Positions 6,195 to 58,472 of a stretch of 64,000 nt of DNA are shown piece by piece. The notes beneath the pieces were generated by a model. It did not search any database. It saw only the letters and a list, made by a program, of their open reading frames with translations, and was not told the origin of the DNA. The stretch is from the NCBI GenBank assembly GCA_045837725.1, contig JBEWZL010000294.1, positions 248,001 to 312,000 of the forward strand, written 5' to 3'. Each line of letters begins with the position of its first letter. Within the stretch, counting starts at the first letter, position 1. The stretch comes from Vermamoeba vermiformis (taxonomy: Eukaryota). The position numbers and the translations under genes were made by a program.

Positions 6195-6246
6195 AATTTG
6201 CGCGGCTACCACACGGCACTTATGATTCGTGCGTACCGTCATTACT

Positions 6247-9342: not shown

Positions 9343-9394
9343 AATTTGCGTGGCTACCACACGGCACTTATGATACGTGCGTACCGTCGTTACT

Positions 9395-9577
9395 AAGCGC
9401 AAGTAGTATCATCAATGTCATACCTATTGGCACTCGTACCTCAAATGATTTTTATGCTCGCTTTCGGGCTTGAGCATTCATTTTTGGCACGTGCTTTTTG
9501 AATGGCAAATTTTCGAGTTGAAATAAAACCACTGTTGTTGGTAAACAAAGAGCACGAATGTTTTAATCGACAATATA
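9395..9577 (+). repeat. ~180-bp direct repeat, copy 3
   Basis: Near-identical to copies 1 and 2; similarity to the duplicated unit stops here. Confidence 0.95.
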
Positions 9578-30088: not shown

Positions 30089-30505
30089 AGTTTTGTTGTA
30101 TCCGCTGTCCTTCTTATTCTTCCTCAATATTATGTAGCAATACAACTAACACAATATTGTTATTATTAAGTATTGTGGTGCTTGTCTTTTGCGGAACAAC
30201 TGAATTGAATTTTTTGCGCGGGGATCAGGTTTGTAACTTTTTTTCTGAAGTTCAGAACAATTGCTGTTTAACAAAAGATGGAGATATTCCTCTTGTGAAT
30301 ATGAACGACAGGATCTTAGATTGTTTATGTTTTTAAGTTGTTCCTTCGAATCTCGCTGAATTTTTGGTTTCCAATAGGAACGGTGTTTACTAAACTGGAA
30401 AAAACGTTGAAAATAACGCTATTAAATACTCCGCCGCACTGAATATAAATAGCGATGGTAGCATAAGTTAATAATCAATAACAACAGCACACAACAAAAG
30501 AAATA

Positions 30506-31270
30506 ATGCAAGCCCGACCAAGAAACCTCCCTCGCCGCCAAGCTACTCCCGCTAAACTATTACCTGGCTACGTTCGTCCCTCTCAAGTTGCCCGACAAAG
30601 ACCAGCTACTGTGACTGTCATTCGTAAATCCAACAAGCGCCGCCAGGTCGTCCGAAATACAAATCCAGTTCCTCGCCGCCACTATTCGGAAAGGACCGTT
30701 CATATAATGCACGAAGCTGGTGTACTGCGCTCATTCGAGCGCCCCGAAGGCGACGTATTTGCCAACAACTGCGTATCCGAGACTCGTTCGAGGATCTGCG
30801 GAGAAATTCACAATAGGCTGAAATGGCGGGCCTCTCGCAAGTGTTCGGTCAATATGTGGGTAAGAATTGATACTCATATGAAAGCGGAGTGAATTTTGAA
30901 CTAATATTTTTAGATCACCAAACCGATCTTCGCCAATTTGATTTTCCGCAAGTGTGGTGAAGACCACTTTCGTTGGACAATTACCAAAACCAAACATAAA
31001 CGTGGGGTGGTGACTCCATCCAAAACGATTGTCCGCATAGCTCTCTCAAGCCGTGAATTTATCAACATCTTCGGTTTTGGTTCAGATGTAAAGCGGGACA
31101 CTGACGAAAACAAGCGTATGTACGTTGCAAAAATATTCAACGAAGAAGATGACGTTGTGCGCATCAGCTACTGTTTGACCAGTGGATCACTGCGCATTCG
31201 CTTTGGCTTCAAATTTTTTCAGCTTTGTATCGATTCTGTAACTGGTTTAATGGATTATTTGGAGATGTAA
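30506..31270 (+). CDS. Orphan protein (~236 aa) with Arg/Pro-rich N-terminal arm and beta-rich body
   Basis: ORFs 30506 and 30938 are joined in frame by a phase-0 intron at 30860-30913 (gtaaga..ctaat..tag). Confidence 0.7.
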
Positions 31271-31483
31271 TTTTCCTAATTATATATTACTTTAAAAATT
31301 AAAGTTTTTAAGCGAGTGATGTTGGATGTAATCAGCGCTTGGTGACCCAAAATAAAAAAAGTTGTTAAATCGAGACGTTTTAATTTTTATGAATAGTTGC
31401 CTATGCCACAAATCAAGTTTACTCTTTAGTTTCGTTAAAAATATTACACATGTAAAGAAAAAAATTTTTTCGCACCAGATCTC

Positions 31484-32580
31484 ATGCCAATCCGTATGGA
31501 GGAGGTCACATGGCAAGACCGCGCTGATCGGCGCACTATTAAAGTTGACTATGACAAAAAACAAGAACATACCAAGGACATGGAACCAATACCAGTAGAA
31601 GAAGCAGATTTGTTTGAGACGATCACCCGAAGGTAAAGTATTGCAATTATACGGAATTTTATTACGGAGCAGGATATTACAGATATCATTTAGATTCGTG
31701 TATAGCAATAATTGACGCGTAAATTTAATAATTATAAATATAATTTCTAATCGATTAAATTTTAATAGTACTCAGTTCAAAGACCAGTACGGAGATACAG
31801 TAATTAGATACGAAACGGACAATGCCGTCAAAAAAGAACTGCGAAATTCGTTGTGGAAAACTACGAGCACTTTGGTAAAGAACGGGGTTAAGACATCCCT
31901 TAAAAATACCACAAGCCTCCACGGCGGCAAGTGGTGCCGATACAAGAAGAACTCTCCGATCTTTTTGTCACGCGATGGCCAGTCTATCCTTAACTTTGCC
32001 AAACGCTCAAGGTTTCCGTCGTTTTTTCACAATGCACTAAATCGACAAGTGTTTGACCTGGTGGACTGGTGGCTGCAGCGCATCAACAATGAATTGTATG
32101 AGAGCTATTGTAAGATCGAAGTTGGAGAGCGGCTTGTTTGCAAGTCGTACTTGATGTGCGTGATTAACTTCGAACTGAGCGGTCCGCACTATGATAAAAT
32201 GGCACGTAATTACATTTGAAGACGCATAATAAGTAATAACTGACGTATTATAGGACGAAATTGAAGGACTCTGCTGTGTAATTCCTTTTGGATCTCCAGA
32301 TCGCTCATGGACAGGAGGAGATCTAGTGTTCCGTGACCTCAAGCTACGATTCCCAATGAAACCAGGAGATATAATTTTCTTTCGATCTCGAGAGCTATTG
32401 CACGAGAATTTGCCCGCCGAAGGTGAACGACGGTCTCTCGTGCTCACAACAGATCATAACTCATTTAAATCACCTGGACAGCAAGTGCAACGAATTTATA
32501 AACATTCTCCTCATCTGAATATTAATGTCGATGATGACTGGGATGAAGTGGATGAGGACGATATGGATTTGGAATTTTAA
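31484..32580 (+). CDS. TET/JBP-family 2-oxoglutarate/Fe(II) dioxygenase (~302 aa, 3 exons)
   Basis: Exons 31484-31632, 31769-32201, 32254-32580 (909 nt); motifs HGGKWCRY, INF..PHYDKMD (HxDxxD), CVIPFG..WTGGDLVF, PGDIIFFRSRELLHEN, GERRSLV. Confidence 0.82.
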
Positions 32581-32637
32581 TTTTTAATAACGTTTATTTA
32601 TTTTCAAAAAATATACAAATAATAGATTGAAACTACA

Positions 32638-34726
32638 CTATCGAAATAAAGTGCCATTTTCGTCAAAATACTCACGATCTTCATTTTCTTCGTCAAATCT
32701 GAAAGAATCAAAAACACTTTGAATATTAGTCTCTGTCTGCACGTAATTATCTTCCATTATCGTGTACTCCTCTGCTATTGCTTGGTTATTTTCTACTAAC
32801 GGTACTTCATTTTCAACAATTTCTTCGTATTGATCTGCGCTCTTTTTGGCAATTCTCTTTGGCTGTTTGGGGCCAAACCTTCCTCGCACTTGTTGTGCTG
32901 ATCTATTTGAACGTTTGGATTTTGTTTGTCTTCGTTTTGCCGGAGCTCTTTTTCGTGGTTTTGCTGCAACGCTAGATCTCCGTTTTTTTGGTTTGTTCTG
33001 TCTGGTTATCTTTCGATTAAGCAGGTTATTTAGTTCAACCATTAAATCAAGCTCAATAGCTAACTTATATCTTGCGTAAAAGTTCAACATTAATTGTTCG
33101 GTGAGGTACAGATCGCCCAAACCTCCTCCATGATTTGTGGCCCGACTTTCAATGGCTCTATGTAATCGATTCGCATACTCAAATCCTTGTTGAGAATATT
33201 TGCCAATTGAGCCCACCACATTCACAAGATCTACAACGTGGCAGAATAATACATGTAGGTACGGAGTTAAAAATGATTTGAAAGTAAGAGGCCACCATTT
33301 TTTCATTGTTGATATTGCTTCACTAAGAATATGTACTTGAGTGTAGGTCAGATCTTGTTGTAAGGAAATTAATCGGTAGATCACTGACCAACTATTTAGA
33401 ATTAAGATGACTCGATTCCTTTTGGTAGAACTAACCCAACTACTAATTCTATCAATAGCTACCGTATTTGGAGTTGTTGAATTTAATTGTGAAATTAATG
33501 ATTCGTCGTCAGATGCAAGATCTTCCGCCAATATTTCTCTGACTCCATTACCATTAATTGCAGCCGTTAAACTATCCTTATCTCTTCTAATTGTCCCATA
33601 TTTATATTCTTTGAATTTATCGGCTATTTCGTCGATTTTGGTTGGGATGAGATCTAAAATTGTTCCAATTACGATTCTTTCAGTCACTCTCATGCCCATG
33701 TGCAAACAACAAAATATCCAATCCGTAGACGCAATGTCCAATCCAGGAATTGTTTCTCTGGCTATGACGCCGTCGTTGTTTTCAATTTGAATATCGCAAG
33801 ATCTCTTGTTACAATACGGGCAAAATTCTAGTTCTGAATTATCACACCATTGTAAGCCACTACATTTCCATAATGAAACAAAATCAGACCCCATTTTGAT
33901 TTTTAAGTTGTAGGATTTTTGTTCATCCGTCTCTTTCGCTCGAAAATTCATAGTTTTCAGTTGGCACAGTTTTCGTAGCGTATTATTTGCAGTGGTGCGT
34001 GCCTCTTTTTCCGAGCATTGGAGAATAGATAGAGGAAAAGTACTGAATCCAGATTGCGCAGGTAGCTTCAAATTCAGCGGAACAATTCCGATAAGCACTT
34101 CATTAGTTCCATTATTAGGTCGACCGTCAAGACTAAACTTAAATTCAATGTCGTTAGGGATAGGGCTATCAGGGAAGGCAGAACAATGGATGCGACAAAT
34201 CATCTGCAAAACTTTCTCTTCTTCGACAGTACATGAAAAATACTTTTCATCGGAAGTTAGCGCCAACTCTGTAATTAGCTCCTCGTTAACCTCTCTTCTC
34301 ATGTTACGAATTGCGTCAATTGATGGCAACGCCAATTTTAATCCACCAATTGCTCTGATCATTCGATAAGCTTTATCGGGTAACATTCCCTCTAGTTTGG
34401 CTAACAGGATCTATGGTATGATTAGCGCGATATAATAACGTGAGTAGAAAATGACTTACTCGGCGCAACCGTCTCACATCCCGCCGCTTTCGAAAAACCG
34501 GCATTTTTGTTAATTTGTGGGCAATAATTTGCTTTCTTAGCCTTGCTTTCATTATCTTAACAAATTCTAGAGCACTTTTCTCAAGACAGATAGCAATCTG
34601 CTCATCTGTGACAGCGTGCGCTTCTTTAATTGAATTTATCATGTCCGTAATTATTGGCGTTAATCTTGTATTTCGGTAACTCTCTGTTAATAGGTCACCT
34701 ATGTTTTTTGTGTTGTGGTTCACCAT
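32638..34726 (-). CDS. RAG1/Transib-like DDE transposase (~679 aa, intron 34411-34459)
   Basis: SLDGR (D1), GSDFV (D2), FCPYC, CCLH, INGNGVREIL and TPYLHVLFCHVVDLVNVVGSIGKYSQQGFEYANR, collinear with the RAG1 core (..[33 protein letters not shown]); basic C-terminal tail. Confidence 0.85.
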
Positions 34727-35846
34727 GTTGATCAAATCGTATTAATTAATTATCAAAAAATAAAAATTATTACAAAAACAATCCCTTTTAGAGGATATCC
34801 AAATTCGAACAATTACGCTAAATAAAATTTTATTACCAGTATTAGTATTGACTTTACATTTACGGGATCAGCGGAGGAATAAACGTTACTTCATTACTAA
34901 TTCGGCAAGCTTATAATGAAATCTCTACAAGGTAATTATACAAATAGGGCAACGGTGGAGTATGTATCGCTACCATTATACTAATGCAGAATTATCGGTT
35001 GTGACTTTACTAATGCGAATGAAATCCCAATAGAACCAACCAGTCGACCAATCGCAGGGTTTTTTCGGAACAACTAAAACCGTTTGTATTGCGGGTGTTT
35101 TTAAGTTCCCAACAGAATAGATTGAGCTCATTCTTCTCGTTCGAATATTCTATAAACAACACCGAATGCGGGAATAACACAAGACGAGTAGCTACTCAAG
35201 TGATTCTCAGAACTTCAGACCAGAAGATCTAAAACTTAACATTGCGTCTTGCAAATGACGGAAGAAATGCCACAAAGCTTATTAGTGTGGCTAAAATTAC
35301 GAGATCAAACTGAAAAAATAAGACAGACAAAATACAAAGCGTTTCTTGCAGCAGATCCCTTGGCCTTTCGGGTATTTGCTCAGAAGATCCAACGACAGCA
35401 CCAATCGCATTCAGTATTAAAATATGTTTTTAAAAATACGTACGAGAAATATCAACCAAATGGCTCCTCTGAAAAAGCAGACGACAACTCGAATCCTGCA
35501 GTGGCAACTATGCGACAGTAGCAGATAAATATTCTGAAAAGGGCTCTAAATATATCAATTAACACTCCCTATATTATTTATATTTATTACATGTAAATAC
35601 GCGATTATTGTAAATAAAGTTCATGACTTCAATGAATTGAAAGGCTCACACGTCGATTCCCGCACTTATTCTATATTTGCATCAGGAATATTACTCCTGG
35701 TAGCACGTTAAATAATAAACTTACGGAAATGCGAAATCCATTTCAGAATTCCGTGTCAGCATTATTTTGGATCCAACAAGTGGATCACCACGAATCAAAA
35801 ACCGGCCACGGACTCATATCTTTCTAGCAAAAGTAACATTATAATA

Positions 35847-39579: not shown

Positions 39580-42500
39580 CAATGGCTAATTATTTTATTA
39601 GTATTAATAGGCTTGATATCGGTCATATTTATCGTTCGAGTTGCTGAAGGTAAGATCTGTCAAACGGTCTGAATTGCAATTTACATTTTTTTCGAGTTCC
39701 CAAAATTTTCAGTCTCTTTGCGATTTTAATTTCCTAATTGCATAATTATGATGCATCTTATGACGCGGTTAGCATTGACTTTCAGAAGCGAAAATTCATA
39801 ATTTTTAAGGCAAGACTGACGTTTGTCTTTCAGGTTGTTACCTGTCAACTAGCACGATTAATACGCGGCTAAAAGATGTCGCGTTGACAGTGGCGAACGA
39901 CGAAATATTTATTGCTGGCGGATCCAGTGTTAATTCAGTTTCTCCGGTTGTAAACATATTTACTCCCCGAGACAGCTCCTGGGAACAGATCCAGCTTCCC
40001 ACAGCAAGAAAATCAATAGTCGCGGCATCGTTAGGCTCGACGGTCTTATTTGCCGGAGGATTAGACCAACAAAACCAACAATACAATTCCGTGGACATTT
40101 TTGACTTCCGTGCGCGTCGATGGGTGACACTGGACTTTGACACGCGTCACGTGATCAAGGGCGCCGTTATTGCACAATCCCAAGCATTTTTGTATACCGA
40201 ACAAGACGAGCTTGTCATTGTGAACCCGACTTCGAACTCAACTTCGACATTATCACACGCCGGACGATTTATCGATGCAGTGAGCAACGCGACGCATATC
40301 TTTTTCTTGGTCTACCAGGGCAACATTCCAAATGTAGAAATTTTCAACATTGACGCCGGAACATGGACTTCAGTGCCATCATCAGCGCCATTCACCGAAA
40401 TTGACAGAATCTTCCACGTGTCAAATTTGATCGTGCTAGTTGGTCGGCAACAAGGTCACGCGATGTCGCCTCGAACGACTTTTCAGCGAACTTTCACGTT
40501 CTCAAACGACGCCAGTGATGCGGCTAAGGTCGTCAATGTTGGCACGGACTTGTTCTTTTTGACACGCGACTCTGTGACAGTTGCCACCATGCCTCAAGTG
40601 TCAACGGCGACCTACAACATCAACCGCACTGCCGTCGTCGAGAGCAATCTCGTAGTGCACAACAACATTGTTTATTTCACGGGCCTCGGAGACAGCTCCA
40701 ATAGTGCAACGGAACTTTTCCGCTTCGAGTTGAACCAGCTGTTCCAACGCGTTGATATTCGGACCTTTCTAACCACACCAACTGATGCCGAATGGGGCTT
40801 TTTGTTTTGGCTCCAGCCCGCCATCGGAACCATCGCGACACTGAACCTACGACTAAGACGTATTGACGTCTTCCATACGAACCTGAGAGATCACTCCGAG
40901 GCTATCGGAGTGCGAGTCAACTCGGACTACGTCATCGTGGCAAGTGATCCGCATCACCTCGGCGAAGGAGCTTCAAGTGAATACGACGTGTTCAACTTCA
41001 ACACGCAGAGGGTGACGACAAGAAGAATGCCCAACGCCTTTGCCGCGACCTCTGGAGTTTCTGCAGGCAACTATGCAGTGTTCACAACAGCCTCCAACTT
41101 TTTGCACGTGTACGAAGCCGGGGGCATTTGGTTCCGCCTATTCTCCGCACAACCTACGCAATTTGCAGCTTTAATCGAAGACAACATTATCATGGTGCAC
41201 GCGAGCATGATCGAGACGTACGACCTCCACACGCGAGAGATACGCAAGTACAACGTTACACGCCCTTCAGGTGACAAGAGCACGTCGAAGTACTTCGCTA
41301 CGCTGTTCCGCGTGTTCATTTGTGACAGAACGGCCACTGGCGGCACTGCGATCGCTACTTATCGTCATACACGCCGTGGCGTCGTTTATCACCAAATCGA
41401 CTATCCTATAGAAAGTATCGTGGAGGTGCGTGGATTTGTCATATTCAATGTGATTACGCCCTCGCACCCGCAAAAGATGTTCGTATATTACTTCGAAGAT
41501 GACAATGGCTCGCACGATATGCGTGAAATTCCACTGCCCGTCAACGAGGCCAGCCCATACGACAAACGGCCAGTGATGTACGCGAGCACGGGAGAGTTTC
41601 TATATTTGGTGCGACCATTCAGGGTCGATGTCTTGGACGTCACTGATTGGACTGTAACACGCGTGCCCTCGATGGTGATTGGCCAGCCCCTTCAAGTCCT
41701 ACTGCTCGGCAGCAAACTCGCCATACATCACAGCCTGAATGACGTACAGCATCTTTTGGTCTACGAGCGATCAACGCAAGAGACGCAATCGATCGAGTTC
41801 AGAGGCTTGGGAGGAACTCCTTTCGTGTTTGCCACTGAAGACAATTTCATCTACACGCTCAACTCCTGGCTATTTCAGGTGATGCCGTTCACTAGCATTA
41901 CCTTTGCTCTTCGAGACAGCACAGAGTTCCTTGGCCAGACCGCATTATTCGCAGCTCGAGCGATTTCGGCTGTGGGTGACCTTAGCACTACTTGGCGACA
42001 CAACTCGCAGCTAATTAACAACGCTGGCACGACACTCCGCCTCCAAAATGTCACGGAAGACATGGCTGGCGAGTACTCCGTTGAAGTGAGAGATCAGTGC
42101 GGTCATCGTGCTGTCAGTTCAGCTCGTCTTAATGTCAATGGCAAACCGGTCTTTACAGCCCCTTTGCAGTACTCTACAATTTTATGTCACGAACCTACAG
42201 CCATTGAAGTGAACGTCACAGGTGCGCGTGTGTCTTACACCTGGACAATCAACGGCATCGATCATGACGGGCCCGAGACCAGTGTCATCGTCCACGAAGA
42301 CAAGATTGAATGTAACTCCGAAAGCACACTCTGCGTGACGGCTACTAACCCCGCTGGCTCGTCTTCAAGCTGTGCTCAAGTTCGTGTCCTACCAATCGAG
42401 TCTGTCTTTAAAGGCCCCGCGCCAGTGACCGAACAACAGAACTGGTTCGCAGGCAGTGAAGCTACTTTACATGTCTCGGTGCTCGACGATCACTGCACGA

Positions 42501-42829
42501 GTCACGAGTGGTTCATGGAAGGCACTTCATTGGGTCGCTTTTATTCCGCAGAGAGTACGCTCAATGTCAATGTGACACGTGACATTGAGCAGTCGAAGAT
42601 CTTTGTGCGCACGTACTGTGGCAGTGGCGTTATTGCGTCACACGCGTTCAGTTTCAATCAAGTGTCAGTTCTTAGTGTCAAAGAGCTCGCTGTCATCATC
42701 GTGGCAGCATCGGTCGTATTCATTGCGGCCATCATCATCGTCATTGTTGTGGCCAAGAAAAAGAATAGCACTGCTTACAAAAAATTGGGCAAATACGAAC
42801 TTCAAACACTCAGCGCAGAACTACTTTAA
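39580..42829 (+). CDS. Type I membrane protein: Kelch/beta-propeller repeats + Ig-like domains + TM helix + short tail
   Basis: Hydrophobic leader exon (WLIILLVLIGLISVIFIVRVAE|); FIAGG and VLFAGG..VDIFD..W Kelch motifs; TWRHN..TLRLQNVTEDMAGEYSVEV Ig motif; TM LAVIIVAASVVFIAAIIIVIVVA; exact start unresolved. Confidence 0.8.
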
Positions 42830-45786: not shown

Positions 45787-47838
<2,052 letters not shown>

Positions 47839-47938: not shown

Positions 47939-49973
47939 TTACAGGAGCGACCATAACGCCACTAGTACATGAAATGCGCGGCAAAGGTATTGGGCTGATT
48001 GCGCGCTAGAAGCAACGAAACTCGTTGGTGATCCTTCGGGTCTGGTACTAGTTGGTTCTGTTGATGATTGCGGCGAAGAGCCTGGTTCATCTGTCACTGG
48101 AGGAGTTATTGGAGGACTTGCTGCCGCTGCCTTTGTCGTAACCACTAGGTCAAACGATGAGTTTAGGTTCATGCTGCCGGTTTAAGGGTACGAGTGCAGG
48201 ATTGATTTGTTTAGCTTACCCGAAGCGCTAATCGTGGTGTTAGGATTAGCCTGATTGAGATCGTATTGGAAGTCATCTTGTTGATTGGCCACGAAGTTCC
48301 TGATGACATCTGCTGAGGACTTTTCGGTGTTGTCAGGGGCTGGTCTTGATCAGCTATTGCGACAGAACACAGAAATCTACTTACGCGTTGTCACGCTCAA
48401 TTCGACTTCGAGCTCAGTCTGGTCTACTTGAGCCACTAATCTCTTGTTCACTGAAGCCGACTGAGTGACGTTGACAAGAATGACACGGTTTGGATCTACG
48501 TTTGTGGCAAAAATGAATGCCAGACGAGCTTGTTCTGCAAATTGTGCGATATTGACGGTGCCAGTGACAGTAAAGCCAAACACAATGCTGAGCTCTAGCA
48601 ATCAAACGTGTGGTCAGTTTCAACATCGATGCAGCTAGTAAAGGTACGTACGAGTAGGACATGCAAGTGCTGGTTCATTCGCAAATTGCAGAGTGTCGTT
48701 TTGAAAATGCCAAGTGTAGAGATCACTCGTGACGTTCAACAGCACTTGTCCAGGGTTGAGAGGATAGCGACGTGTTCTGCCAGGCAGGAATACCACGACA
48801 GGAGCAGTGTTGATCGGTTCCAAGTTGTTTCGCAACGGATTATCGATGAGCAACACACTCGTCTCGTTGCTCATGTATCCGAACTGTGCGACGTTGTTCT
48901 CATCAATGCACTCGAGAATCGGAGAGATGTTGAAGGTCACATTTGAGGGTGCAGATGCTACAAAGATAAGTTAAGAATGTGCGATGAAACTATCATTGGT
49001 AACAACTTACGCAACAGTGTGCAGTTGCCAGGAGCTCCGTTGCCAATGTATTTGAGAGGACACGTGCAAGTGTAGCCGCCAGTTCTAAGTACAGAACATG
49101 ATGCGAGTGGGTCACAAGGAGGATAATCGATACATATATTGCCCGCTGTGAATTATAAAAGGTTAGTTTTTTTAAGTTTAAAATTGTTATTCATGTGCAA
49201 TTGCAGAGAAGATTTACTTGAAATCGAATATATCCATTAACTCGAATCGCTCGCTTACTTAAACACTGAATACCATTCCAAGTGGTATTTTTAGGGCAAC
49301 AAGTCGCATCCAGTCCGGTGTCAATACAATTTTCCGTGGTTGAGTTGCAAGGGCTGGGAGTGCACGGATTAACCTTGTAGCGCAGGTCGTCGAATACAAA
49401 TTGACATCCTGATAAGGTAATGCTCTTTACATTCGCAGTTGCGCTTCTGTAACGGAAGACATGATAATAATTTGTCGAGTTGGTTGGTGGTGCCACATTA
49501 AATTGCATGCAAGTTACTGTGCTGCCAGCTGAATTTTTTAGTGTAAATTGAGGCTCTCCGCCACCGCAGTTCTGATTGTGGCTGATCTTCAACGAAAATT
49601 GTCTGATCGGCGCCGCGAAAGTGATCAGGGCTGTATTTAGGTTCGATTGAAATGAGACATAAAAATCTTGCTTATTCCAAGAGGTGAATTCATCAGCGCC
49701 CAGAACAGTAATCCATTTGTTGATAATGAGGACGACTAGCTGACCATCATTTACTCCGAAGATCGTCACTTCCATTGATGATGCTGGCGTAATACGGAAC
49801 GACTCTAATGATGCACTCGCCCATACATGAGCAATTCCTAAATTATCAAAAGTGATGATATCTAGCGGTGCGCGGACTTCAATACCGGAATCAAATCCAG
49901 TAGTTGAGCACACTTGACTGAAAGCGGGCGAAATAAATAAAAATATACAAAGCAGAAGGAGGTTTGGTGCCAT
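47939..49973 (-). CDS. Secreted EGF-like-domain surface protein, paralog 1 (hydrophobic C-terminus, GPI-like)
   Basis: Signal peptide MAPNLLLLCIFLFISPAFS; Cys-rich EGF-like exons; PILECIDENNVAQFGY domain; Pro/Ser/Thr stalk. Confidence 0.75.
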
Positions 49974-50152
49974 CTCTATGAGAGAATTACGTAATAATTT
50001 TATTTCGTTGTGTTGTTGCTTGACGTGATGACAGCAGTCCAAAACACAGATCCTTTTCTGTCGTTGCTTCGTTCGGGCAAGATTGAACTTATAACCAACT
50101 TCCTCCATCCGATCTTATGTTAACAACTGACCGCTCAAGAAGAAAAAAAGAG

Positions 50153-52139
50153 TCATGTCCCCAGCCCAAAAACAAGCAACAAGCTTCCAAAGGTAACGTG
50201 TTCCAACATTGACGCCCTCGAAGCAACGAAGTCCCTCGGAGATGCAGCAGGACCACTCTCGGGTTCTTCTGCGATAGGTGCCTCAGTTGAAGGGGGACTC
50301 ATCGGAGGTGCTAATGGGGCTGCTTTCGTTGTCACAACTTACAAGCTGAGGTTAGTTTTGTCATACCAAGGTGTCGAACATAACGGCAGGACGTACCTGA
50401 AGTACTGATTGTGGCGTTTGGATTAGCTTGGTCAAGATCGTATTGCAAGTCATCTTGTTGATTGGCCACGAAGTTCCTGATCACATCTGCTGAGGACTTT
50501 TCGGTGTTGTCGGGGGCTGAAGAGTGGTTAGAATTAACGCCGTTAGAGATGAGATTTACGTACGTGGTGTCACGCTCAATTCGACCTCGAGCTCAGTCTG
50601 GTCTGATTGGGCCACTAATCTCTTGTTCACTGAAGCCGACTGAGTGACGTTGACAAGAATGACACGATTTGGATCGACATTAGTTGCAAAAATGAATGCC
50701 AGACGCACTTGTTGACCAAACTGCGCGAAGTCGACTGTGCCCGTAATAGCAAAGTGAAGTATTATGTTAATCTCTGAATCATCGGGTTAATTGCTGCGTA
50801 TTGGTTAGAGTGAAACATACGAATCGGGCACGCAAGCGCTGGTTCATTCGTGAAATTCAGTTGGTTACTTCCCAGCTGCCACATGTATTCTGCACTGCTG
50901 ACATTCAACAGCACTTGGCCAGGGTTGAGAGGATAGCGACGTGTTCTGCCAGGCAGGAATACCACGATAGGAGCAGTGTTGATCGGTTCCAAGTTGTTTC
51001 TCAACGGATCATCAATGAGCAACACACTCGTCTCGTTGCTCATGTATCCGAACTGTGCGACGTTGTTCTCATCAATGCACTCGAGAATGGGAACAATGTT
51101 GAAGGTCACATTTGATGGTACGGATGCTACAAAGATAAAATTACATTGTGCAACCAACAACAAAACTATTGGTAACAACTTACGCAACAGTGTGCAGTTG
51201 CCAGGTGCTCCGTTGCCAATGTATTTGAGAGGACACGTGCAAGTGTATCCTCCAGTTCTTAGAGGATCGCATGTTGCAAGCTGATCGCAAGGCGAGTCAT
51301 CGATACAAGGATTGCCGGCTAAAATCGCTATAAGTTAGCTCAGTTTTTAAAGTGCAATTGTTAAAAAGAATTAAATCAGTAAGCGAATCATATTCGCTTA
51401 TATTCATCAATTACGATGCCTTACTTATGCATTTAACGCCATTCCAGGTGGTATTCTTTGGACAACAGACTGCATCCAGTCCGGTGTCGAAGCACGTTTC
51501 GGTTAAATTGCAAGGGCTGGGAGTACAAGGCTCGGTCTTAAAGCTCAAGTTGTCCATTACAAACGCACACCCTGCTAAAACGATGCCATATACGACGGGA
51601 CATGAGTTTCTGTAACGGAGGATGAAGTATTGATTGGTTGATCCTTGCGCTGGTGCCGCATTTAAAGGACTGGCTCCAATATTTCCCCCAGTCTTGTTTA
51701 AGAAAGCGATATAAGGTGTCCATCCTAATGCAATACAACCGTTATCGTGAGCCAGCATCATCGAAAATTGTCTGATCGGCTGAGCGAAAGTTATGGTTCC
51801 AACGTTTCGCCAAGCATAGTAGCCCATGTAATTGTCTGCTTTGTTCCAATTCGTACTCCAATCGCTGCTGAGAGGTGTTACTCCGGGCATAACATTGACG
51901 TAGTTCGCTCCATCATTGACTCCGGTCAGCGTGACTTCCATTGATGTTGCAGGTGTGATGCGAAGAGCTGTGCCGTATTGACTGGTCCACGGTACAGAGC
52001 TTCCGAGATTATCGAAAGTGATCGTGTCGAGAGGTGCAGTTACTTCAGTCCCCCAGTCAAAAGCATATTGAAAATTGTTGCACGACTGGCAACTGGCCGC
52101 TGTGATGAATAGAAAAATTGATAATAATACTGCGATCAT
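50153..52139 (-). CDS. Secreted EGF-like-domain surface protein, paralog 2
   Basis: Same exon architecture; signal peptide MIAVLLSIFLFITAASC. Confidence 0.75.
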
Positions 52140-52634
52140 TGTGTAACGTTGATAAAATAATTTTAAATGCGGGAAGATTCTGTTCCAAATTTGTCAGTCG
52201 CGCGACAAACGATTCCATGGTATAATAATTAATCGTCCCTACGAATATATAAAGAGAAGATTATTAATGTTAAGATGTGTGTTAGTTTACTGCAGATTAA
52301 GCCTTTGTTCGATGAAGGTAAGAAAAAGCTTGGAGCAGAAGTTTATCCGGCAAAGTTTCTTCTTTGCCAGAGAATCAAGTGTACGATAATGGGTAACTAA
52401 TTTTTGTATTTCAGCAGCTTTAATCTCTTCAAGAAGACGTTGACTTGAGAAATTTCGGACCGTACATTCGGCAAGGTTAAATCGTTTGGAAAGTCATCCC
52501 TATGCGCTCCTTTGGACTAATGATGCCTCGAGGTTTTTTGGTGATTTTTTTGTAATTTTCTGCTTTTTTGTAGGTCTGGAATCTTCGGACGAGAGATCTT
52601 CGATCTGTCTTCTTTCGTGAAGCCATTTTAGGTG

Positions 52635-55600
52635 TTAGTTCTCAGTCATCTTATTGCCATCCACAACATTCGTGTTATTCTTCACTTCAAGAAGGCCGAC
52701 GCTGCTTGATCTCCTCAACGTAGCAGCAGAAGACGATCGCACGAGTTGAGGTTTGTTGTCGTTTGTCATCACCACTGTGGTGTCTTCATTCACATCGTTG
52801 TTGCGGAGATACAACGCATGCTCGATCGTGTTGCGAACGACAAAGCGAACAATGGTGATTTGTTTAGTTTGTCCTTGTCTGAATGCACGACCAATGGCTT
52901 GTGATTCGATTGCTTGTGCTTCTTTCTTTGAGCCTGTCACGGGATCTGGCACAACGCACGATTAGATTTTAGTCGATGGATCATAGTCACTGTTGCTTAC
53001 CCATGAGAATGACATGCGTTGCTTCAACCAGGTTCGTTCCCGAAGCAGCGTTCTTGAGCGACAGCATGATCACTTTGACATCTTCGTCTTTCTTGAAGTT
53101 GGTCAGCGCTTTCGTTCTCTTCCAAACGTTTCTGCGTAAAGGTTAACGAGAAGCTTAAATGCATTGGTGTTTAAGACTTACCCTTCAACGAACACGTTCG
53201 CGATGTTGTGGTCAGTCAGCACTTGTGAAACACCGCTCAACGTATCATCGTACTAAACTCGTTGTTAAGTTAGAGTATTGAATGGCGATAACTTACTTGA
53301 GAGAAAAATATGACGCGACTGTCTGGCTTGCGAATGAACAACTTCTTTAAATAGCTTATCATGTGCGCCATTTTGCTGCCATGCTGCAACGTAAGTTTTG
53401 CAGTTTCCGTGGAAGTCAGCTGCCAAAAGATTAGTCGATTGAATTGTTGAAAGTATTAAGAGTACTTGTACCTTTTTGTCTCTTTTTGCAAAGGGCGTGG
53501 CATTCCTTGCTAGTTCGAGTACTTTTTTTACTGTTTCCAGTTTTTGACGTTGTTGCGTGTAATACTGCTGTTTGTTTGGAGGTGCATTAGCACCCCTTGC
53601 AATTTCTTCGGTGTAATATTCAACCGAAATCTAATTGAAATAAATTAGATATCATTCAAGAAAATAAATTGATCGCAAACCTCTGCATCTTGGAGCAGCT
53701 CTTCCAGTCTCTCGTCTAGTGTTTGCTCGTGGAGAAGTGTGCCGCACATTTCAGCTTTGCCAACTAATTTAAACAATTAAAATCGTTACAGCAAATTACT
53801 GAAGCTTACCATCGTAATCATTATCGCTGTATAAAGCTCTCTCAATCTCATCGAATTCAACCATTGCCAAGTCTTCTACGTAATCTGGAATTTTGTATTC
53901 GCCTTGCACAGAGGCCTAGCAGACAGGCTTAGATATATATATGGTAGTGCTAGCTATATACCTTTGTGTGTCGCCAATACAACTCTCTCAGGATTAGGTC
54001 TGTTGTTATCGCACTGGCTGACAGTCAGTACAAGTACCGATTAAAATTACTGCGCTTACTCTTGCCAATACAAATTATGTGGCGCTGGTTGCACACCTAA
54101 GAATTGTTTCACAGGCTTCATGTGGCTGCCATTAATGGTGTTAAAATTTCATTCAATATCCAAATAATGACTTACTAGTCTGTCGGGAATGGCGTGCCAG
54201 TGACGTACCACGCAAAGCGTGTGAACAGTGATTTGAAGTGGCGAATGTATTGATCGTCGTTGATGTACTCGTGACCTTCGTCCAACACTAGTCGGTGCCA
54301 GTAGAACTGTTCGAGGACAGGTACTTTCTTTCGCAGCGACGCAAAGCTCTTTGATTTGTATTCCATCCACTTGAGGCGCTGATCACGATAGTTCAGATTC
54401 GACAACAATTGGTACGAGGCAATCACAACGTCGTAGTCGAGCAGATCTTCGTACGTGTACTTCTTGAGCTGCACAATCGTCGCTATAACTGCAACTTTCA
54501 AATCTGTGACCTTTGCAATTTCATCGCTCCACTGCTTCGCGAGATGATTTGGACACAGGACTAGGGTCAAGTATTAATATCACCAAGTAGGGGGCTATTG
54601 ATCGGGATTTACCTAACGTCGCTCGTGTCGCAAACAGCTTGTCGTGTTCGGGCAGTTTTTTCGGTGGGGGCACAGACAACATTAGTCCAATCACTGCCAC
54701 GCACGATTAGTCAATACAACCTTAGCATAATATTGCGCTTGAACGAACCTTCCATGGTCTTGCCAAGGCCCATCTCATCAGCTAAAATTGCTCCTCTTGG
54801 CACGACGATATCGAACACGTCGTCGAGGTCAGTGCTGGACTTGTTGTAAATTTTGAGTTCGGGCGTGATCATGAAACTAGTTCCGGGCCAAGTGTATGCT
54901 TTGAAGTACGGAATACCTAACAAGATATTTAGCCCTCGTCGTTTGATATGACAGCACTATGTACCTTCAGTATTCAGTTCGACAGACTTCATCCACGAGA
55001 TTGCATCGAGTTGATATTTGTACAGTTTGATCTCGTCCTTGAATCCCTCGGGCTGTTGCTGAGCTGTGAACGAACGCTTTAAATAAAGTAATCGTTAGTG
55101 GCTAGGTCAATAACAAATCAAGTGCAACTAACTCTTGGAATTGAAGTCTCATTCGTTGAGCTCACAGCGTTGATCGTTTTCGATAATTCAGATTCCAAAA
55201 TTTTGTGAATCGTGCTCAGTCCTGCAATTTTTTGGTTCGTTGCTGCTAAATGCTCGAGCCTGATAAAAATTAGTTTTTGTTACTCATTTTGCAATACAAG
55301 AGAATTACCTCGCAATGTTGATCTCCATATCAACGAGCCAATAAAATAAGTCTTCATCACTATTACGAACATAGACGTCATCGCGGAGTTCCCGAAGTTG
55401 TTGCAATTCTTCGAAGCTAATTCTGCGAATTTGATAAGACCATAGACTTGGATCAGCATTGATTTCACTCCAATCCGCGAGTTCCCCATTTTGGTCGACG
55501 TAACAAATGACTTCTCTGTGCTCGGTGAGCAGCGTCGTTATTTTGCAATGAGGCAAGATATCAACTATCGCCGGATTTCCTCCGGGACAACGCTTCATAA

Positions 55601-56247
55601 ACACTGTTCGGTATTTTTTTGCGACTTCATGTTGTTCATTGACCCACATTCGGTCGAAATCTTTCTTCCCGACCGGATCTGACACTTCGTCGCGATAATC
55701 TAATTTAAATTATTTTAGTTCAATAATCAAGCATTATTAACGGCTATATTTTGTTACCAAAGTGGTGCTCAGCGAAGTACGCATAACAATTTTCATAGAG
55801 GAAGATAGATCCAGCCGAATGCCAGCCTAGCGTTTGATCACGTGACAATCTACTCCATTGCCGACAAGTAGAGGCAATAGCAGCCAAATCTCTTCGGTAA
55901 AAACACGAAAATATCTGGAGCAACAGTTCATCTGGCAAAAATTGCTCTTCTTCTTCACTAACTTCTCGTTGCATATTAATGGCATTATTAGCTATCAATT
56001 TTTGTAATGCAATCGCCTTGAGTTCTTCTTTGGTTAATTTTACAGGAATAATTTGGGTCTCATCCGTTTCATCGTTTGAGTTATCTTCGTCATCTTTTGC
56101 GTTTTTCTTTTGATCTCTTTTTGTTGTATTTTTGCCATTATTTGACGATTTTTTGGTGACCTTCTGCTTTTTTGTTGGACGGGGCTCTTCCAAAGATAAT
56201 TCTTCCTCGATCTGCGTGATTTTCCTTTTTCTAGTTGCACGAGACAT
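52635..56247 (-). CDS. F-box + SNF2 (Rad5/16-like) helicase
   Basis: F-box LPDELLLQIFSCF..CRQW; ILADEMGLGKT, LVLDEGH, VTGTP, VIFFSQ, SGTNL, QAIGRAFRQGQ. Confidence 0.85.
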
Positions 56248-56514
56248 GGTGTTCCTGTTCAATTTTACGTCGTAGTATTTTTGGCGCGTGGAGTTCACTT
56301 GCGTTTCTTGATTAATTCAAGGAATTATTCCAACAACAAAAGCGATCTGACATGTCAAACGATCAGGTATTTTTCAGTATTAACGCGAGGGCGTTATTAT
56401 TATTTTAACAGGGCATATTAACGGATACGAAGGAAAGATTGAACTTCACTTGTCTAAATGTTAGCAGGAACGCCCAGGAAAATTTAACTTTATTTGTATC
56501 GGTTTCCAACAAGA

Positions 56515-58472
56515 TTACAGCAGCGATAAAAGTACTAACATTAACGCACAGCAGAGATGGGTTAATGAGTTCGCGTTGGAAGCAATGAAGCTCGGCTCTG
56601 AGCTTGGAACGTTCGTATTCGTTGGTGCTTGTGGTGGTGGTGCAGCTTGTGTCGATACCACTAACATGATTCGTTCGTAAGTTACAAAGTTTGAGTGACA
56701 GAATTGAAAGTACGTACATGACGCGCTGATGGTTTGGTTCGGATAGGCTTGGTACAGTTCGTAAAGGAAGTCATCTTGCTTTGGATCGAATTGGCGAATG
56801 ACTTCAGCGGAGGACGGTTGAGATGCGTTCTCAGCTGAATATTGAAGTGAGTTCGTGTCATCCACTGACAACAAACACTTACGTGGAGCGACACTCAACT
56901 CGATTTCAAGTTGAGTTACGTCTTGTTGTGCAGCTGAACGTTTGTTTCCTAAAGTGGTTTCGTTCACATTGACAATAGCTACACGGCTGGCTACAACATT
57001 TGTCACAGTAATGAACGACAGTCGAGTTTGTTCAGCGAACTGGGTTGGGTTAACTGAACCGGAGACAGAGAACTGGAACAAAATGCTGATGTCTGCCAAC
57101 AAGTACGTTAGTTTTGAGCCTATCATTTCCGCTAATACGTACGAGTAGGACAGACACGTGAAGTCTCAATGGCAAATGAGAGGTTATGGTTCTCCAATCG
57201 CCAAACATAATGATCACTCGTGACATTCAACAGCACTTGACCGGGGTTGAGAGGATAGCGTCGTGATCTGCCGTACGAAAAGATCATGACAGGAGCAGTG
57301 TTGATCGGTTCCAAGTTGTTTCTCAACGGATCATCAATGAGCAAAGTACTTCTCTCCAAGCTATTGTATCCGAATTGTGCGACGTTGTTCTCATCGATGC
57401 ACTCGAGAATCGGAGAGATGTTGTAGGTTACATTCGAGGGTGCGGACTCTAAATTGACAAAGTCAGCGCCGTTCAAGGTGCGGTTGAACTCGCGTAATCT
57501 TACCGAGAAGAGTGCAGTTGCCAGGAGTTCCTATTCCAATATATTTGGGAGGGCAAGTGCACTTGAAGCCACCTGTTCTCAGAGGAGAGCACGTTGCTAA
57601 AGGATCGCATGGATTATCTGTGTCCAGGCAAGCATTGCCGGCTGAAAAAGATTTTATAAGTTTTCTGTTTTTTAAATGCCATTTCGCAAAAGTTATCAAC
57701 GGAAGATCTTTGAAGTTAGTAATAGGTCGATACCACGCTACTTACTCATGCATCTAACACCATTCCACGTGGTATTCTTTGGACAACAGACTGCATCCAG
57801 TCCGGTGTCAATGCAGTTTTCGGTCGTCACGTTGCATAGGTTGGGAGAACACGGTTCGGTCTTCAAGCTCAGATTATCCATTACAAACGCACATCCTCCT
57901 AAAACGATGCCGTAGACGATGGGACATGAGTTTCTGTAACGGAGGATGAAGTATTGATTGACTGATCCTTGTGCCGGTGTAGCGTCTAAAGGACTGGCTC
58001 CAATTACACCACCAGTACTGTTTAAGAGACCTATATAGGGTGTCCATCCTAATGCAATGCAAGCATTATCGTGAGCCAGCATCATCGAAAATTGCCTGAT
58101 CGGCTGAGCGAAAGTTATCGTGCCAACGTTACGCCAAGCATAGTAGCCCATGTAGTTGTCTGTTTTGTTCCAATTCGTACTCCAATCGCTGCTGAGGGGT
58201 GTTAGCCCGGGCATAACACGAACGTAGTTCGCTCCATCATTGACTCCGGTCAGCGTGACTTCCATTGATGTTGCAGGTGTGATGCGAAGAGCTGTGCCGT
58301 ATTGACTGGTCCACGGTACAGAGCTTCCGAGATTATCGAAGGTGATCGTGTCGAGAGGTGCAGTTATTTCAGTCCCCCAGTCAAAAGCATATTGAAAATT
58401 GTCGCATGTCTGGCAACTGGCGACTGTGATGAATAGGAAAATCGACGCTAATGCTGTGATTTTTGGTGTCAT
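56515..58472 (-). CDS. Secreted EGF-like-domain surface protein, paralog 3
   Basis: Same architecture; CLDTDNPCDPLATC..GGFKCTCPPKYIG EGF motif. Confidence 0.75.

Follow-up and report, generated by a model that had tools for sequence, protein, structure and literature searches.

The window (the whole 64-kb stretch of DNA that was analysed) carries on its minus strand a two-exon gene for a RAG1/Transib-like transposase, and its stop codon faces that of a plus-strand gene for a 2-oxoglutarate/Fe(II) (2OG-Fe(II)) dioxygenase, probably of the TET/JBP-like type. The features of both genes are given below, with residue numbers (D87, D168, E403, and so on) that refer to the 582-aa ORF at 32638..34386 and not to the spliced 679-aa protein.

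34726..32638, minus strand: transposase gene, two exons, spliced coding sequence of 2040 nt (679 aa)
34460..34726, minus strand: transposase exon 1, 89 codons, ATG at 34726
34411..34459, minus strand: transposase intron, 49 nt, GTAAGT...CTAAT...TAG, phase 0
32638..34410, minus strand: transposase exon 2, RAG1/Transib-like core (ORF residues 1-455) and disordered tail
34126..34128, minus strand: D87 (SLDGR), predicted first catalytic Asp; D in 23 of 23 relatives covering the column
33883..33885, minus strand: D168 (GSDFV), predicted second catalytic Asp; D in 27 of 27 relatives covering the column
33811..33822, minus strand: C189-P-Y-C192 (CPYC), ZnC2-type ligands; C in 30 of 30 relatives at both columns
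33700..33711, minus strand: C226-C-L-H229 (CCLH), followed by R233; start of helix 227-243
33238..33255, minus strand: H378-VLFC-H383 (HVLFCH), ZnH2-type ligands; H in 32 of 32 relatives at both columns
33178..33180, minus strand: E403 (QQGFE), predicted catalytic Glu; E in 31 of 31 relatives covering the column
32641..33009, minus strand: C-terminal tail of the transposase, ORF residues 460-582, predicted to be disordered
32638-32640, minus strand: transposase stop codon
32578..32637: 60 bp separating the stop codons of the convergent genes
31484..32577, plus strand: convergent 2OG-Fe(II) dioxygenase gene, exons 31484-31632, 31769-32201, and 32254-32577

With its 2089 nt, the span 32638-34726 is not divisible by 3, and it forms one gene because the 49-nt intron links exon 1, in phase 0, with the long ORF. 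The ATG at 34726 is the first one, since an in-frame stop sits just upstream. A preliminary description of this DNA had claimed an intact RAG1-core-like gene at 32638..34726, with catalytic residues spaced by 81 and 235 aa and with C2/H2 zinc ligands and an acidic triad in the order found in RAG1. The gene, the codons, both spacings, and the order of the motifs were all confirmed, and the ligands and triad proved invariant among the relatives that cover them. The accompanying statement that there are no stops or frameshifts is correct for the spliced message, but not for the raw DNA, given the 49-nt intron. Neither this intron nor the dioxygenase neighbour had been mentioned in that description.

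Exon 1 encodes the part of the protein that lies N-terminal to the portion superposing on RAG1 from residue 476 on. It has no match in Pfam, its C-terminal end is basic (..FRKRRDVRRLRR), and it may occupy the place of the RAG1 nonamer-binding domain. The tail at the other end of the protein has pLDDT values <50 at residues 460-571 of an AlphaFold model and comprises a Lys/Arg-rich stretch followed by an acidic end; its sequence contains no Cys/His motifs, and it may have a role in nuclear targeting.

The core of this superfamily is RNase H-like, with one catalytic Asp on the first strand, a second Asp after the fourth strand, and a Glu on a helix; >200 aa separate the second Asp from the Glu in the Transib/RAG1 superfamily. 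In the model, the first strand of the RNase H-like core (residues 79-91) bears D87, D168 comes directly after the strand formed by residues 156-167, and E403 is on the helix spanning residues 400-416. When a profile of 32 relatives was aligned with RAG1, D168 fell on the Asp of “GYDEK”, C189/C192 on “CTLC”, and CCLH on “DALHC”, whilst both phmmer and the profile placed H378/H383 on “YLHKTLAH” and E403 on the Glu of “SEGNE”. H383 is located 20 residues before E403, and the H-x4-H-x19-E spacing in the profile alignment equals that of RAG1. The CCLH motif is family-invariant, with L228, H229, and R233 found in all 32 relatives and C226 in 31 of the 32; an NGNG motif occupies residues 278-281. A sub-profile of residues 1-170 (5 sequences) found no RAG1 or HzTransib match in the PDB, the sole hit being an unrelated chain at E 0.41, so that it is the topology of the fold and the invariance of the column that support the presumed equivalence of D87 with the first RAG1 Asp. 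Judged by its residues, the transposase is predicted to be catalytically competent.

An exhaustive HMMER search among 1.84 billion representatives recovered 144 relatives at E ≤ 0.001, three of them with E < 1e-30, whilst a word-indexed homologue search of similar-length proteins yielded no transposase relative at E ≤ 0.001. The nearest protein relatives, P0001-P0003, come from short contigs and are 30-39% identical to the query. A search of metagenomes with an alignment of four sequences found a single related locus (L001), which is 1082 nt long, shares 55-61% identity with the query, and is thus the closest relative, yet contains an in-frame stop; the same search detected no relatives in viral contigs or prokaryote genomes. 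The named relatives are from Naegleria gruberi and N. lovaniensis (Naegleria proteins P0028, P0297, and P0040), and the Atlas neighbours of the transposase are from Cnidaria, Arthropoda, and Mucoromycota, so that the relatives are patchily spread across taxa; Naegleria is of another eukaryotic supergroup than the host of the window. The query by itself gave weak signals, with 15.9 bits against the Pfam RAG1 model (cut-off 25, E 0.0035) and E 0.077 against the PDB by phmmer. The profile of 32 relatives, in contrast, matched RAG1 at E 6.7e-16 and was co-linear with it over 324 profile positions. It also matched the lancelet BbRAG1L at E 7.3e-11 and HzTransib at E 1.1e-10, in the latter case with profile positions 11-436 aligned to chain residues 7-439.

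The AlphaFold model has a pLDDT of 81.3, and most of residues 1-455 exceed 90. All the top Foldseek matches are RAG1, RAG1L, or HzTransib (E 4.7e-14 to 3e-8), followed by Hermes at 4.7e-5. Using VIA-align, residues 1-451 of the model were superposed on residues 476-1005 of mouse RAG1 (Z 23.7, 406 residues aligned, rmsd 3.3); the corresponding values for HzTransib were Z 23.7, 401 residues, and rmsd 3.8, and BbRAG1L scored Z 22.0. The next family is the P element at Z 14.5, and Hermes scored 8.6. A search of 48,161 chains that was independent of Foldseek returned the same order, with RAG1 and HzTransib at Z 22-24 over ~400 residues. Across the RAG1 and HzTransib superpositions, 401-410 residues aligned at an rmsd of 3.3-3.8. 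The core of these enzymes is made up of dimerisation/DNA-binding, pre-RNase H, RNase H, ZnC2, ZnH2, and C-terminal domains, and the match extends over the whole of it. The RNase H core, without which the preliminary description would have regarded its claim as wrong, is present, as the catalytic cores of retroviral integrases align with the model from residue 79-80 on (Z 5-5.8).

We consider it highly probable that the transposase belongs to the RAG1/Transib superfamily. According to a recent study, all CMCT-clade transposases have C(2)C and H(3-4)H motifs in common (Kojima, 2025; PMC12730594), and the motifs alone therefore do not place the gene in Transib proper: C-x2-C/H-x4-H is necessary, and insufficient, for Transib/RAG1 membership. 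The gene might thus belong to another CMCT lineage (EnSpm/CACTA, Mirage, Chapaev, Plavaka, ESTA, Lanisha, or an unnamed one) and not to Transib/RAG1L proper, with RAG1 and HzTransib ranking top only because the other lineages are without a solved transposase structure. A precedent for such a reading is found in the Tet-carrying ESTA elements of rust fungi, which, in the same study, were recognised via HHpred matches to RAG1 (Kojima, 2025; PMC12730594). Set against it are the strength and co-linearity of the profile match to RAG1, the superposition of ~400 of the 455 core residues, and the shared H-x4-H-x19-E spacing. Furthermore, RAG1 was the only Pfam family matched by the query at E ≤ 10, and it was the sole recurrent one among the 48 relatives scanned, being found in 8, two of which reach the cut-off (30.1 and 25.1 bits); at E ≤ 0.01, none of these 48 had a match to a further transposase family. 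On balance, we view placement in another CMCT lineage as unlikely, and retain RAG1/Transib.

The start of the convergent gene at 31484 is the first in-frame ATG, and its 5′ end lies outside the RNA coverage; the spliced protein has ~300 aa. Its two introns are of 136 nt (GT..AG) and 52 nt (GC..AG); the joints 31630->31767 and 32200->32253 are seen in contigs of dataset X4, and the frame stays open only with the 52-nt skip. H-Y-D ends exon 2, and “LLHENL” and “ERRSLV” are located in exon 3, which together provide the iron triad (H-x-D...H) and 2-oxoglutarate-binding Arg of 2OG-Fe(II) enzymes, a combination that indicates the superfamily and not the family. The Pfam matches of exon 3 are all below cut-off, namely 2OG-FeII_Oxy_3 at E 0.0064, TauD at 0.01, and Tet_JBP at 0.022 (14.4 bits against a cut-off of 34.9). 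In the PDB, exon 3 found a TauD/TfdA-like chain at E 0.064, aligned over PGD..LH..GERR. Tet_JBP was present in 21 of the 30 nearest Atlas clusters of exon 2, which is a weak indication with a recognition value below the trusted level. Exon 2 had no homologue in a search of longer proteins and nothing meaningful in the PDB by phmmer, and the dioxygenase had no sequence match to the Naegleria Tet structure. A structure model of exon 2 alone (pLDDT 32.9) was discarded. The neighbour is probably a TET/JBP-like 2OG-Fe(II) dioxygenase, an enzyme that would oxidise DNA bases, although its assignment to this family is weak and tentative.

The host nuclear genome is amoebozoan-type. The nearest named relatives of the IMPDH encoded in the window are Tubulinea amoebae, and other genes of the window likewise point to an amoebozoan, in agreement with the non-animal host surmised earlier. 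Of 43 ORFs of the window that were scanned with Pfam, none matched the RAG2 family, and a Kelch ORF at 39.8-42.8 kb, 5 kb from the transposase, matched generic Kelch models only. Bacterial promoter, bacterial terminator, and Rfam scans of the region returned nothing relevant.

Our searches for element ends were negative. No terminal inverted repeats were found: the flanks at 29-31 kb and 34.7-37 kb shared, at best, an inverted match of 30 nt with 73% identity (E 0.72). A 16-mer end scan peaked at 13 of 16 matches, and no flanking duplication went with them; none of the candidate end pairs in that scan had a 5-bp target duplication above chance. CA..TG termini with 2-5 bp or TA duplications were likewise not seen around both genes, a search that has little power with one copy. 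CACWRTG heptamers are not enriched (25 found versus 32 expected), and none lies at a plausible right end. Candidate empty-site junctions at 30099/30105 and 35202 (loose ends and opposite-strand joints) were rejected, as the loose letters mismatch the opposite flank. The 64-kb window contains no second copy of the transposase or the dioxygenase. With no terminal inverted repeats (TIRs), target-site duplications (TSDs), or extra copies in the flanks and window, the “recent activity” suggested in the preliminary description is without support. That neither an RSS-like heptamer nor a 5-bp duplication was found would also suit one of the other CMCT lineages.

Contigs of X4 are without at least 10 canonical introns across the region and X4 is therefore taken as cDNA; it is not recorded as RNA, and the assignment comes solely from these intron-free contigs. 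The transposase intron joint 34410->34460 (CT..AC on the plus strand) is found in an X4 contig of depth 19.1, with 218 letters on its shorter side, and X4 contigs cover 33049-33844 with 0-6 differences per contig. The transposase gene is intact, spliced, and transcribed. Amongst the coding differences listed between the gene and X4, 5 of 6 are synonymous and one is nonsynonymous; for these listed differences, the chance of at least 5 of 6 being synonymous without constraint is 0.002-0.008. The RNA-seq raw-read runs X20-X22, which carry the species label of the best-matching DNA run, place 0 reads on 30304-34911, and flanking bins reach a depth of up to ~4. Their reads are mostly 95-99% alike, 74-80% of them run on into unlike sequence, and they come from a diverged strain or from paralogues, so that these runs speak neither for expression nor for its absence.

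These observations bear on whether the gene is still part of an element. It could instead be a domesticated, single-copy transposase without ends that has acquired a host role, for instance in the programmed cleavage of DNA or in binding to it, in which case the adjacent dioxygenase would be a host gene with no connection to it, or else a partner that was co-opted. The failure to find TIRs, TSDs, and RSS-like heptamers, the single copy in the 64-kb window, the intact ORF with its normally spliced intron and ordinary transcript depth beside host genes, the retention of the full catalytic set, and the synonymous excess all agree with such a role. The last of these fits a domesticated gene equally well, and a lineage of active master copies would be expected to show it too. 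Transib-type ends are short (38 bp, with few conserved positions) and unrecognisable from one copy. The pattern of relatives, which are either 30-39% identical (P0001-P0003) or 55-61% identical and interrupted by a stop (L001), is more typical of mobile elements. We lean, if only by a little, towards a gene that is element-borne rather than domesticated, and consider domestication to be a rather unlikely alternative. It is also conceivable that the locus is an immobile relic that has lost its ends, with a frame that is open only as the loss is recent, and with incidental transcription. The lack of detectable ends, the stop in L001, and the GC content of the gene (0.38, slightly below the window mean of 0.42) point in that direction. 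We regard this as improbable given the 2040-nt frame, the correctly spliced intron, the preservation of every invariant residue, and the excess of synonymous differences.

Our preferred interpretation, to which we assign as a whole a probability of roughly 0.6, is that of a RAG1/Transib-type transposase gene which most likely belongs to a cut-and-paste element. That this element also carries the convergent TET/JBP-like dioxygenase gene is part of the proposal, but has a probability below even. The patchy spread of relatives and the in-frame stop in the closest of them are element-like traits. Such an element would be either still mobile or recently immobilised, and may include the dioxygenase gene 60 bp away. 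By analogy with the RAG1 and HzTransib structures, a transposase dimer would bind both element ends, the basic exon 1 and the Lys/Arg-rich tail serving in end binding and nuclear import. D87, D168, and E403, with two metal ions in each subunit, would nick one strand at the element end, and the freed 3′-OH would attack the opposite strand, so that the flanking DNA is left with a hairpin; after excision, the ends would be inserted elsewhere. Zinc held by C189, C192, H378, and H383 would brace the active-site module. The pairing would match the Tet-carrying DNA transposons of fungi (Kojima, 2025; PMC12730594), for which it is proposed that the dioxygenase works against methylation-based silencing. 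Adjacency in a compact genome is no proof of pairing, and the idea that the transposase, together with its TET/JBP-like dioxygenase neighbour, makes up a single functional two-gene unit in an amoebozoan is put forward tentatively, as something we would not yet expect to be borne out.

RAG1, the recombinase of antibody genes, descends from Transib-type transposases, and well-preserved non-animal members of the family help to map the age and spread of the RAG1/Transib enzyme, to which this gene adds Amoebozoa. Transib-like and RAG1L genes are, however, already known from bacteria, fungi, plants, ctenophores, a pelagophyte alga, and a chytrid (Tao, 2022; PMC9435367), and the value that had been ascribed to the present gene for the origin of the RAG/Transib superfamily was thus overstated. 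The transposase gene itself adds a member to a known non-animal family; its pairing with a dioxygenase is the part worth following. With its intact catalytic set, confirmed intron, and transcription, the gene is a candidate for nick-hairpin tests of a protist enzyme. Should the two-gene unit be real, it would provide the first example outside the fungi of a Tet-carrying cut-and-paste element that is intact and expressed, and the first Tet-carrying element with a transposase of RAG1/Transib type. The capture of Tet genes by DNA transposons would then extend from fungi to amoebae and to the RAG1/Transib lineage, offering a route for Tet genes into scattered protist lineages. The architecture, a transposase joined by a convergent accessory gene, would resemble that of RAG1-RAG2, an enzyme that demethylates DNA taking the place of RAG2. 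If, on the other hand, the gene turned out to be single-copy and syntenic across amoebae, a RAG1-like nuclease would have been domesticated for a second time, independently of the first.

Compared with known systems, the transposase shares with Transib the DDE triad, the C2/H2 zinc ligands, and the long D-to-E spacing, and is of similar size (~680 aa versus ~700 aa for Transib transposases). Its D-to-E distance of 235 aa falls between those of Transib (206-214) and RAG1 (253) (Kapitonov & Jurka, 2005; PMC1131882). The whole-core fold is like that of HzTransib from Helicoverpa zea (PDB ID codes 6pqn, 6pqr, 6pqx, and 6pqy), with 401 of 480 residues aligned, although identity in the superposition is only 12-16%. 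Unlike Transib, which has CACAATG-type heptamer ends and a 5-bp duplication, neither of which was found here, the gene resides in an amoebozoan host beside a dioxygenase gene.

The RAG1 core (mouse and zebrafish, e.g., 5zdz and 3jbw) is the best profile match of the family, in an alignment that spans the second Asp, CxxC, LH, H-x4-H, and Glu, and the RAG1/RAG1L cores (including lancelet RAG1L, 6b40) superpose on the model with Z 22-23.7. In contrast to RAG1, the amoeba protein is without the RING/N-terminal region and without the Cys/His C-terminal tail. It also has 37 aa between CxxC and the “LH” stretch, as opposed to 66 in the zebrafish RAG1 chain, and the RAG2-binding insert is therefore probably missing. 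Whereas RAG1 and RAGL have a RAG2-like beta-propeller partner, the convergent neighbour here is a dioxygenase.

The non-animal RAGL/Transib genes (AanRAGL, the chytrid RAG1L, and Subgroups I and II; Tao, 2022) are similar in having unicellular, non-animal hosts and a patchy spread, but they have asymmetric TIRs and a 5-bp TSD, none of which is defined at the amoeba gene. The main text of that paper names no amoebozoans or heteroloboseans (Tao, 2022; PMC9435367). Among the open-access matches listed, no paper on Amoebozoa has Transib in its title or abstract, and none describes a Transib-like element of Naegleria.

The gene pair has a parallel in fungi. Tet genes are found inside CMCT-clade and other DNA transposons of fungi (Kojima, 2025; PMC12730594), and ESTA, EnSpm, and Plavaka elements combine, as here, a TET/JBP-like gene with an adjacent transposase of CMCT type that has the C(2)C and H(4)H motifs. 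Those elements differ in their fungal hosts and in their TA or 2-5 bp duplications, whereas a shared element in the amoeba host is putative. The amoeba transposase is, at the same time, much nearer to RAG1/Transib than the weak similarity described for ESTA, EnSpm, and Plavaka.

The gene was confirmed as a well-preserved, transcribed transposase gene of the RAG1/Transib superfamily in an amoebozoan. A 120-aa ORF lies upstream of, and in a different frame from, the 582-aa ORF by which residues are numbered here. It carries a GTAAGT donor immediately 3′ of codon 89, and excising 49 nt unites both frames in phase 0 into a CDS of 2040 nt (679 aa). The residues named in the preliminary description were all found where it had placed them.

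Features of the transposase gene, from the sequence and, for residues and motifs, its translation
ATG at 34726, minus strand: 120-aa ORF, upstream and in a different frame
34459..34411, minus strand: 49-nt intron (GTAAGT donor, CTAAT branch-like motif, TAG acceptor)
32638..34386, minus strand: 582-aa ORF
34126-34128, minus strand: D87
33883-33885, minus strand: D168
33178-33180, minus strand: E403
Residues 189-192: CPYC
Residues 226-229: CCLH
Residues 278-281: NGNG
Residues 378-383: HVLFCH

Evidence of transcription came from assembled contigs of one sequencing run (X4). Although X4 is not on record as RNA, its contigs lack introns at ≥10 canonical GT..AG or CT..AC sites between 28 and 39.5 kb, in each case matching the strand of the gene at that position, and we therefore regard them as cDNA. 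One contig joint, 34410→34460 (CT..AC on the plus strand, a skip of 49, depth 19.1), is the predicted transposase intron. Within the gene, other contigs match 33049-33435 without a difference and span 33382-33844 with six; 32608-32991 is covered by no X4 contig. There are at least six CDS differences from X4, of which, among those listed, five are synonymous and one is Ala to Gly, with 44 further differences across the whole stretch. Taking 22-28% of random changes as synonymous, the probability of at least 5 of 6 is 0.002-0.008 but, since the differences listed are part of the total, this amounts to no more than a hint of purifying selection. That the gene is a dead relic is improbable. Three RNA raw-read runs (X20-X22, carrying the species name of the best DNA match) placed 0 reads on 30304-34911. 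Their flank reads are mostly 95-99% alike and 74-80% continue into unlike sequence, so that these runs represent diverged sequence and their zero is uninformative. Divergent from the transposase, and ~520 bp upstream of its start, a 90-aa ORF that matches no family (35249-35521, plus strand) has the region's highest X4 contig depth (73) and is covered by X20-X22 reads.

On its own, the query sequence resembles RAG1 only weakly: Pfam RAG1 gave E 0.0035 (15.9 bits, cut-off 25) and phmmer against PDB gave E 0.077, both spanning residues 366-413 around E403. A word-indexed homologue search found no relatives; an exhaustive HMMER search, covering 1.84 billion representatives, yielded 144 at E≤0.001 (22 of them at ≤1e-10 and three at ≤1e-30), headed by a protein at 1.2e-84 and 38% identity (P0001). 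The relatives with a species name, from Naegleria gruberi and N. lovaniensis, are hypothetical proteins, and neighbours in the Atlas protein-cluster collection comprise RAG1 clusters together with unnamed ones of cnidarian, arthropod, and Mucoromycota origin. In a Pfam scan of 48 of the longer relatives, RAG1 was the sole transposase family, matching eight, each time in one shared C-terminal region, and attaining the cut-off in two (30.1 and 25.1 bits). One distant relative (P0081, 915 aa) has an Ulp1-type protease domain at its C-terminus (Peptidase_C48, E 7e-16), an accessory domain that occurs in other DNA transposon families. A search of sequence collections with the locus matched solely a 1082-nt metagenome contig (L001, 55-61% identity), the closest relative from that search, which at 19-1080 has one in-frame stop in 354 codons at 1.48x coverage, either as a decaying copy or through read error.

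We then aligned the query with 31 of the 144 relatives, picked for long matched stretches covering much of the core. Against PDB, the profile of this alignment matched zebrafish and mouse RAG1 (E 6.7e-16 to 1.3e-11), lancelet RAG1L (7.3e-11), and HzTransib (1.1e-10, profile 11-436 against chain 7-439); the first match outside the family was a dynein light chain (0.064). It aligns D168 with the Asp of RAG1 'GYDEK', C189/C192 with 'CTLC', L228/H229 with 'DALHC', H378/H383 with 'YLHKTLAH', and E403 with 'SEGNE'. Among the sequences covering each column, the catalytic residues are invariant (D87 in 23/23, D168 in 27/27, E403 in 31/31), as are the zinc residues (C189 and C192 in 30/30, H378 and H383 in 32/32). 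A sub-profile of residues 1-170 matched neither RAG1 nor Transib, and D87 is therefore equated with the first Asp of RAG1 on the grounds of topology and invariance.

An AlphaFold2 model built with the alignment had a mean pLDDT of 81.3 and a pTM of 0.77, with residues 1-455 mostly >90 and a disordered tail (460-571). Foldseek against PDB placed RAG1, RAG1L, and HzTransib chains first (E 4.7e-14 to 3.3e-8), then Hermes (4.7e-5), and a Foldseek-independent search of 48,161 chains left the order of families unchanged.

Superposition of the predicted model (VIA-align)
HzTransib 6pqx_A: Z 23.7, aligned 401/480, rmsd 3.8
Mouse RAG1 5zdz_C: Z 23.7, aligned 406, rmsd 3.3, model 1-451 against RAG1 476-1005
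BbRAG1L: Z 22.0, aligned 405, rmsd 3.3
P element transposase: Z 14.5
Hermes: Z 8.6

The latter search also gave the Tn5 and retroviral integrase catalytic cores (Z 5-6), aligned from residue 79-80, the first RNase H-like core strand, which bears D87. In the model, strand 79-91 (D87) is followed by two further strands, a helix, strand 156-167 and then D168, and later by helix 400-416 (E403). This is the order of elements in a DDE RNase H-like core. The RNase H core on which the preliminary description depended is thus present in the strand and helix order of the model. Its RAG1-like family, fold, and catalytic residues are borne out by the profile matches, superposition, and invariant residues, and the enzyme is putatively competent.

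The same description's non-animal host also held: gene content and IMPDH relatives point to an amoebozoan genome, probably of Tubulinea. Introns in the window are short and spliced, and Pfam assigns some of its ORFs to Pirin, IMPDH, SNF2, F-box, EGF, and Kelch/Ig. The IMPDH exon (46529-46951, plus strand; prokaryotic type, about 480 aa) is 73% identical to the representative of its best cluster, which includes a Vermamoeba vermiformis protein; Pyxidicula, Arcella, Flabellula, and Mastigamoeba account for other named relatives. Among eukaryotes, the closest named relatives of the exon are Tubulinea amoebae, with many archaeal and bacterial proteins scoring nearly equally. Elsewhere, a tandem duplication at 3046-9576 has a unit of ~3.2 kb (3046-6428 versus 6247-9576, 92.7% identity), each copy with three ORFs of 157-320 aa and no Pfam match. 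Diverged dispersed repeats at 48217-58476 (50893-52151 versus 57215-58476, 82%; 48217-49086 versus 50394-51259, 83%) include one ORF that matches EGF_3 weakly and possibly represent a small gene family.

A convergent three-exon plus-strand gene runs to 32577, which leaves 60 bp between it and the stop of the transposase. Both of its introns are supported by X4 joints, 31630→31767 (GT..AG once shifted by 2) and 32200→32253; the latter is a 52-nt GC..AG intron (32202-32253, plus strand), seen in an X4 contig, and the frame stays open only with this skip, a nearby GT donor leading to a stop. Counted from the first ATG at 31484, the product is ~300 aa. H-Y-D closing exon 2 and, in exon 3, 'LLHENL...ERRSLV' are the iron triad and 2-oxoglutarate-binding Arg of 2OG-Fe(II) dioxygenases. 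Exon 3 gave sub-threshold Pfam matches (2OG-FeII_Oxy_3 E 0.0064, TauD 0.01, Tet_JBP 0.022) and aligns with a TauD/TfdA-like chain over that chain's C-terminal motif. Exon 2, an independent piece, found Tet_JBP in 21/30 of its nearest Atlas clusters (score 0.96), at a recognition value below the tool's trust level; modelled alone, its structure was useless. A homologue search with the dioxygenase found none, and its exons had no sequence match among solved Tet structures. The neighbour is very probably a 2OG dioxygenase, with TET/JBP specifically modestly favoured.

We favour, at a probability of about 0.5-0.55, a transposase gene that is element-borne and mobile, or recently so; the patchy spread and many fragments among its relatives fit a mobile-element family. 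Between the flanks of the two-gene block, the best inverted repeat was 30 nt at 73%, and among all pairs of 16-mer ends scanned, no more than 13/16 positions matched, without flanking duplications. CACWRTG heptamers were not enriched (25 seen, 32 expected), with none at any plausible right end, and neither gene has a second copy within the 64-kb window. The lack of ends, the one local copy, and the synonymous excess fit domestication by the host equally well, a possibility to which we assign clearly less weight. A near-palindromic 13-mer (TCTGAAGTTCAGA / TCAGAACTTCAGA) flanks the block on both sides (30244-30256 and 35207-35219), adjoining points where X20-X22 reads reverse onto the other strand (30099→30158 and 35202→35241). 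It was rejected as a TIR pair, being too short and too distant from any plausible end, and is perhaps part of a promoter. To read the locus as an intact RAG1-like element that carries a Tet gene outside fungi, or as a co-opted pair of genes, is tentative and rather doubtful.

The evolutionary novelty originally claimed was overstated, as RAG1L in non-animals, from a pelagophyte and a chytrid, had already been published (Tao et al., 2022, PMC9435367). The same study describes a Transib subgroup without the RAG2-binding α11-α12 insert. The CxxC-to-LH distance is 37 aa in the amoeba transposase against 66 in the zebrafish RAG1 chain, which suggests that this insert is absent here. No RAG2-like gene was found by Pfam among the window ORFs. 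A 1006-codon open frame 5 kb from the transposase (39809-42826, plus strand) has Kelch repeats and a weak Ig_3 match; its matches are ordinary Kelch, with the RAG2 family absent, and it is probably unrelated to the transposase finding.

Kojima (2025, PMC12730594) keeps alive an unnamed or ESTA-like lineage of the CMCT clade, rather than Transib proper: C(2)C and H(3-4)H are common to all CMCT transposases, in fungi, Tet genes were captured by 11 transposon lineages, and ESTA elements were identified via RAG1 similarity. Against this stand the strong co-linear profile match to RAG1/Transib, Pfam matches to RAG1 only, and the near-complete superposition of the predicted model on RAG1/HzTransib, and we consider such a lineage unlikely. 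In the open-access literature, our searches turned up no paper on elements of Transib type in Amoebozoa or Heterolobosea, or on Tet genes that such elements carry, although the supplements of Tao et al. may list such hosts; one broad screen gives just 35 Transib transposases in total (bioRxiv 10.1101/2021.09.26.461848). Kapitonov and Jurka (2005, PMC1131882) define Transib by a ~700-aa transposase bearing a DDE triad, by RSS-like TIRs, and by 5-bp TSDs, and give second-Asp-to-Glu distances of 206-214 aa for Transib and 253 for RAG1, against 235 aa in the amoeba transposase.
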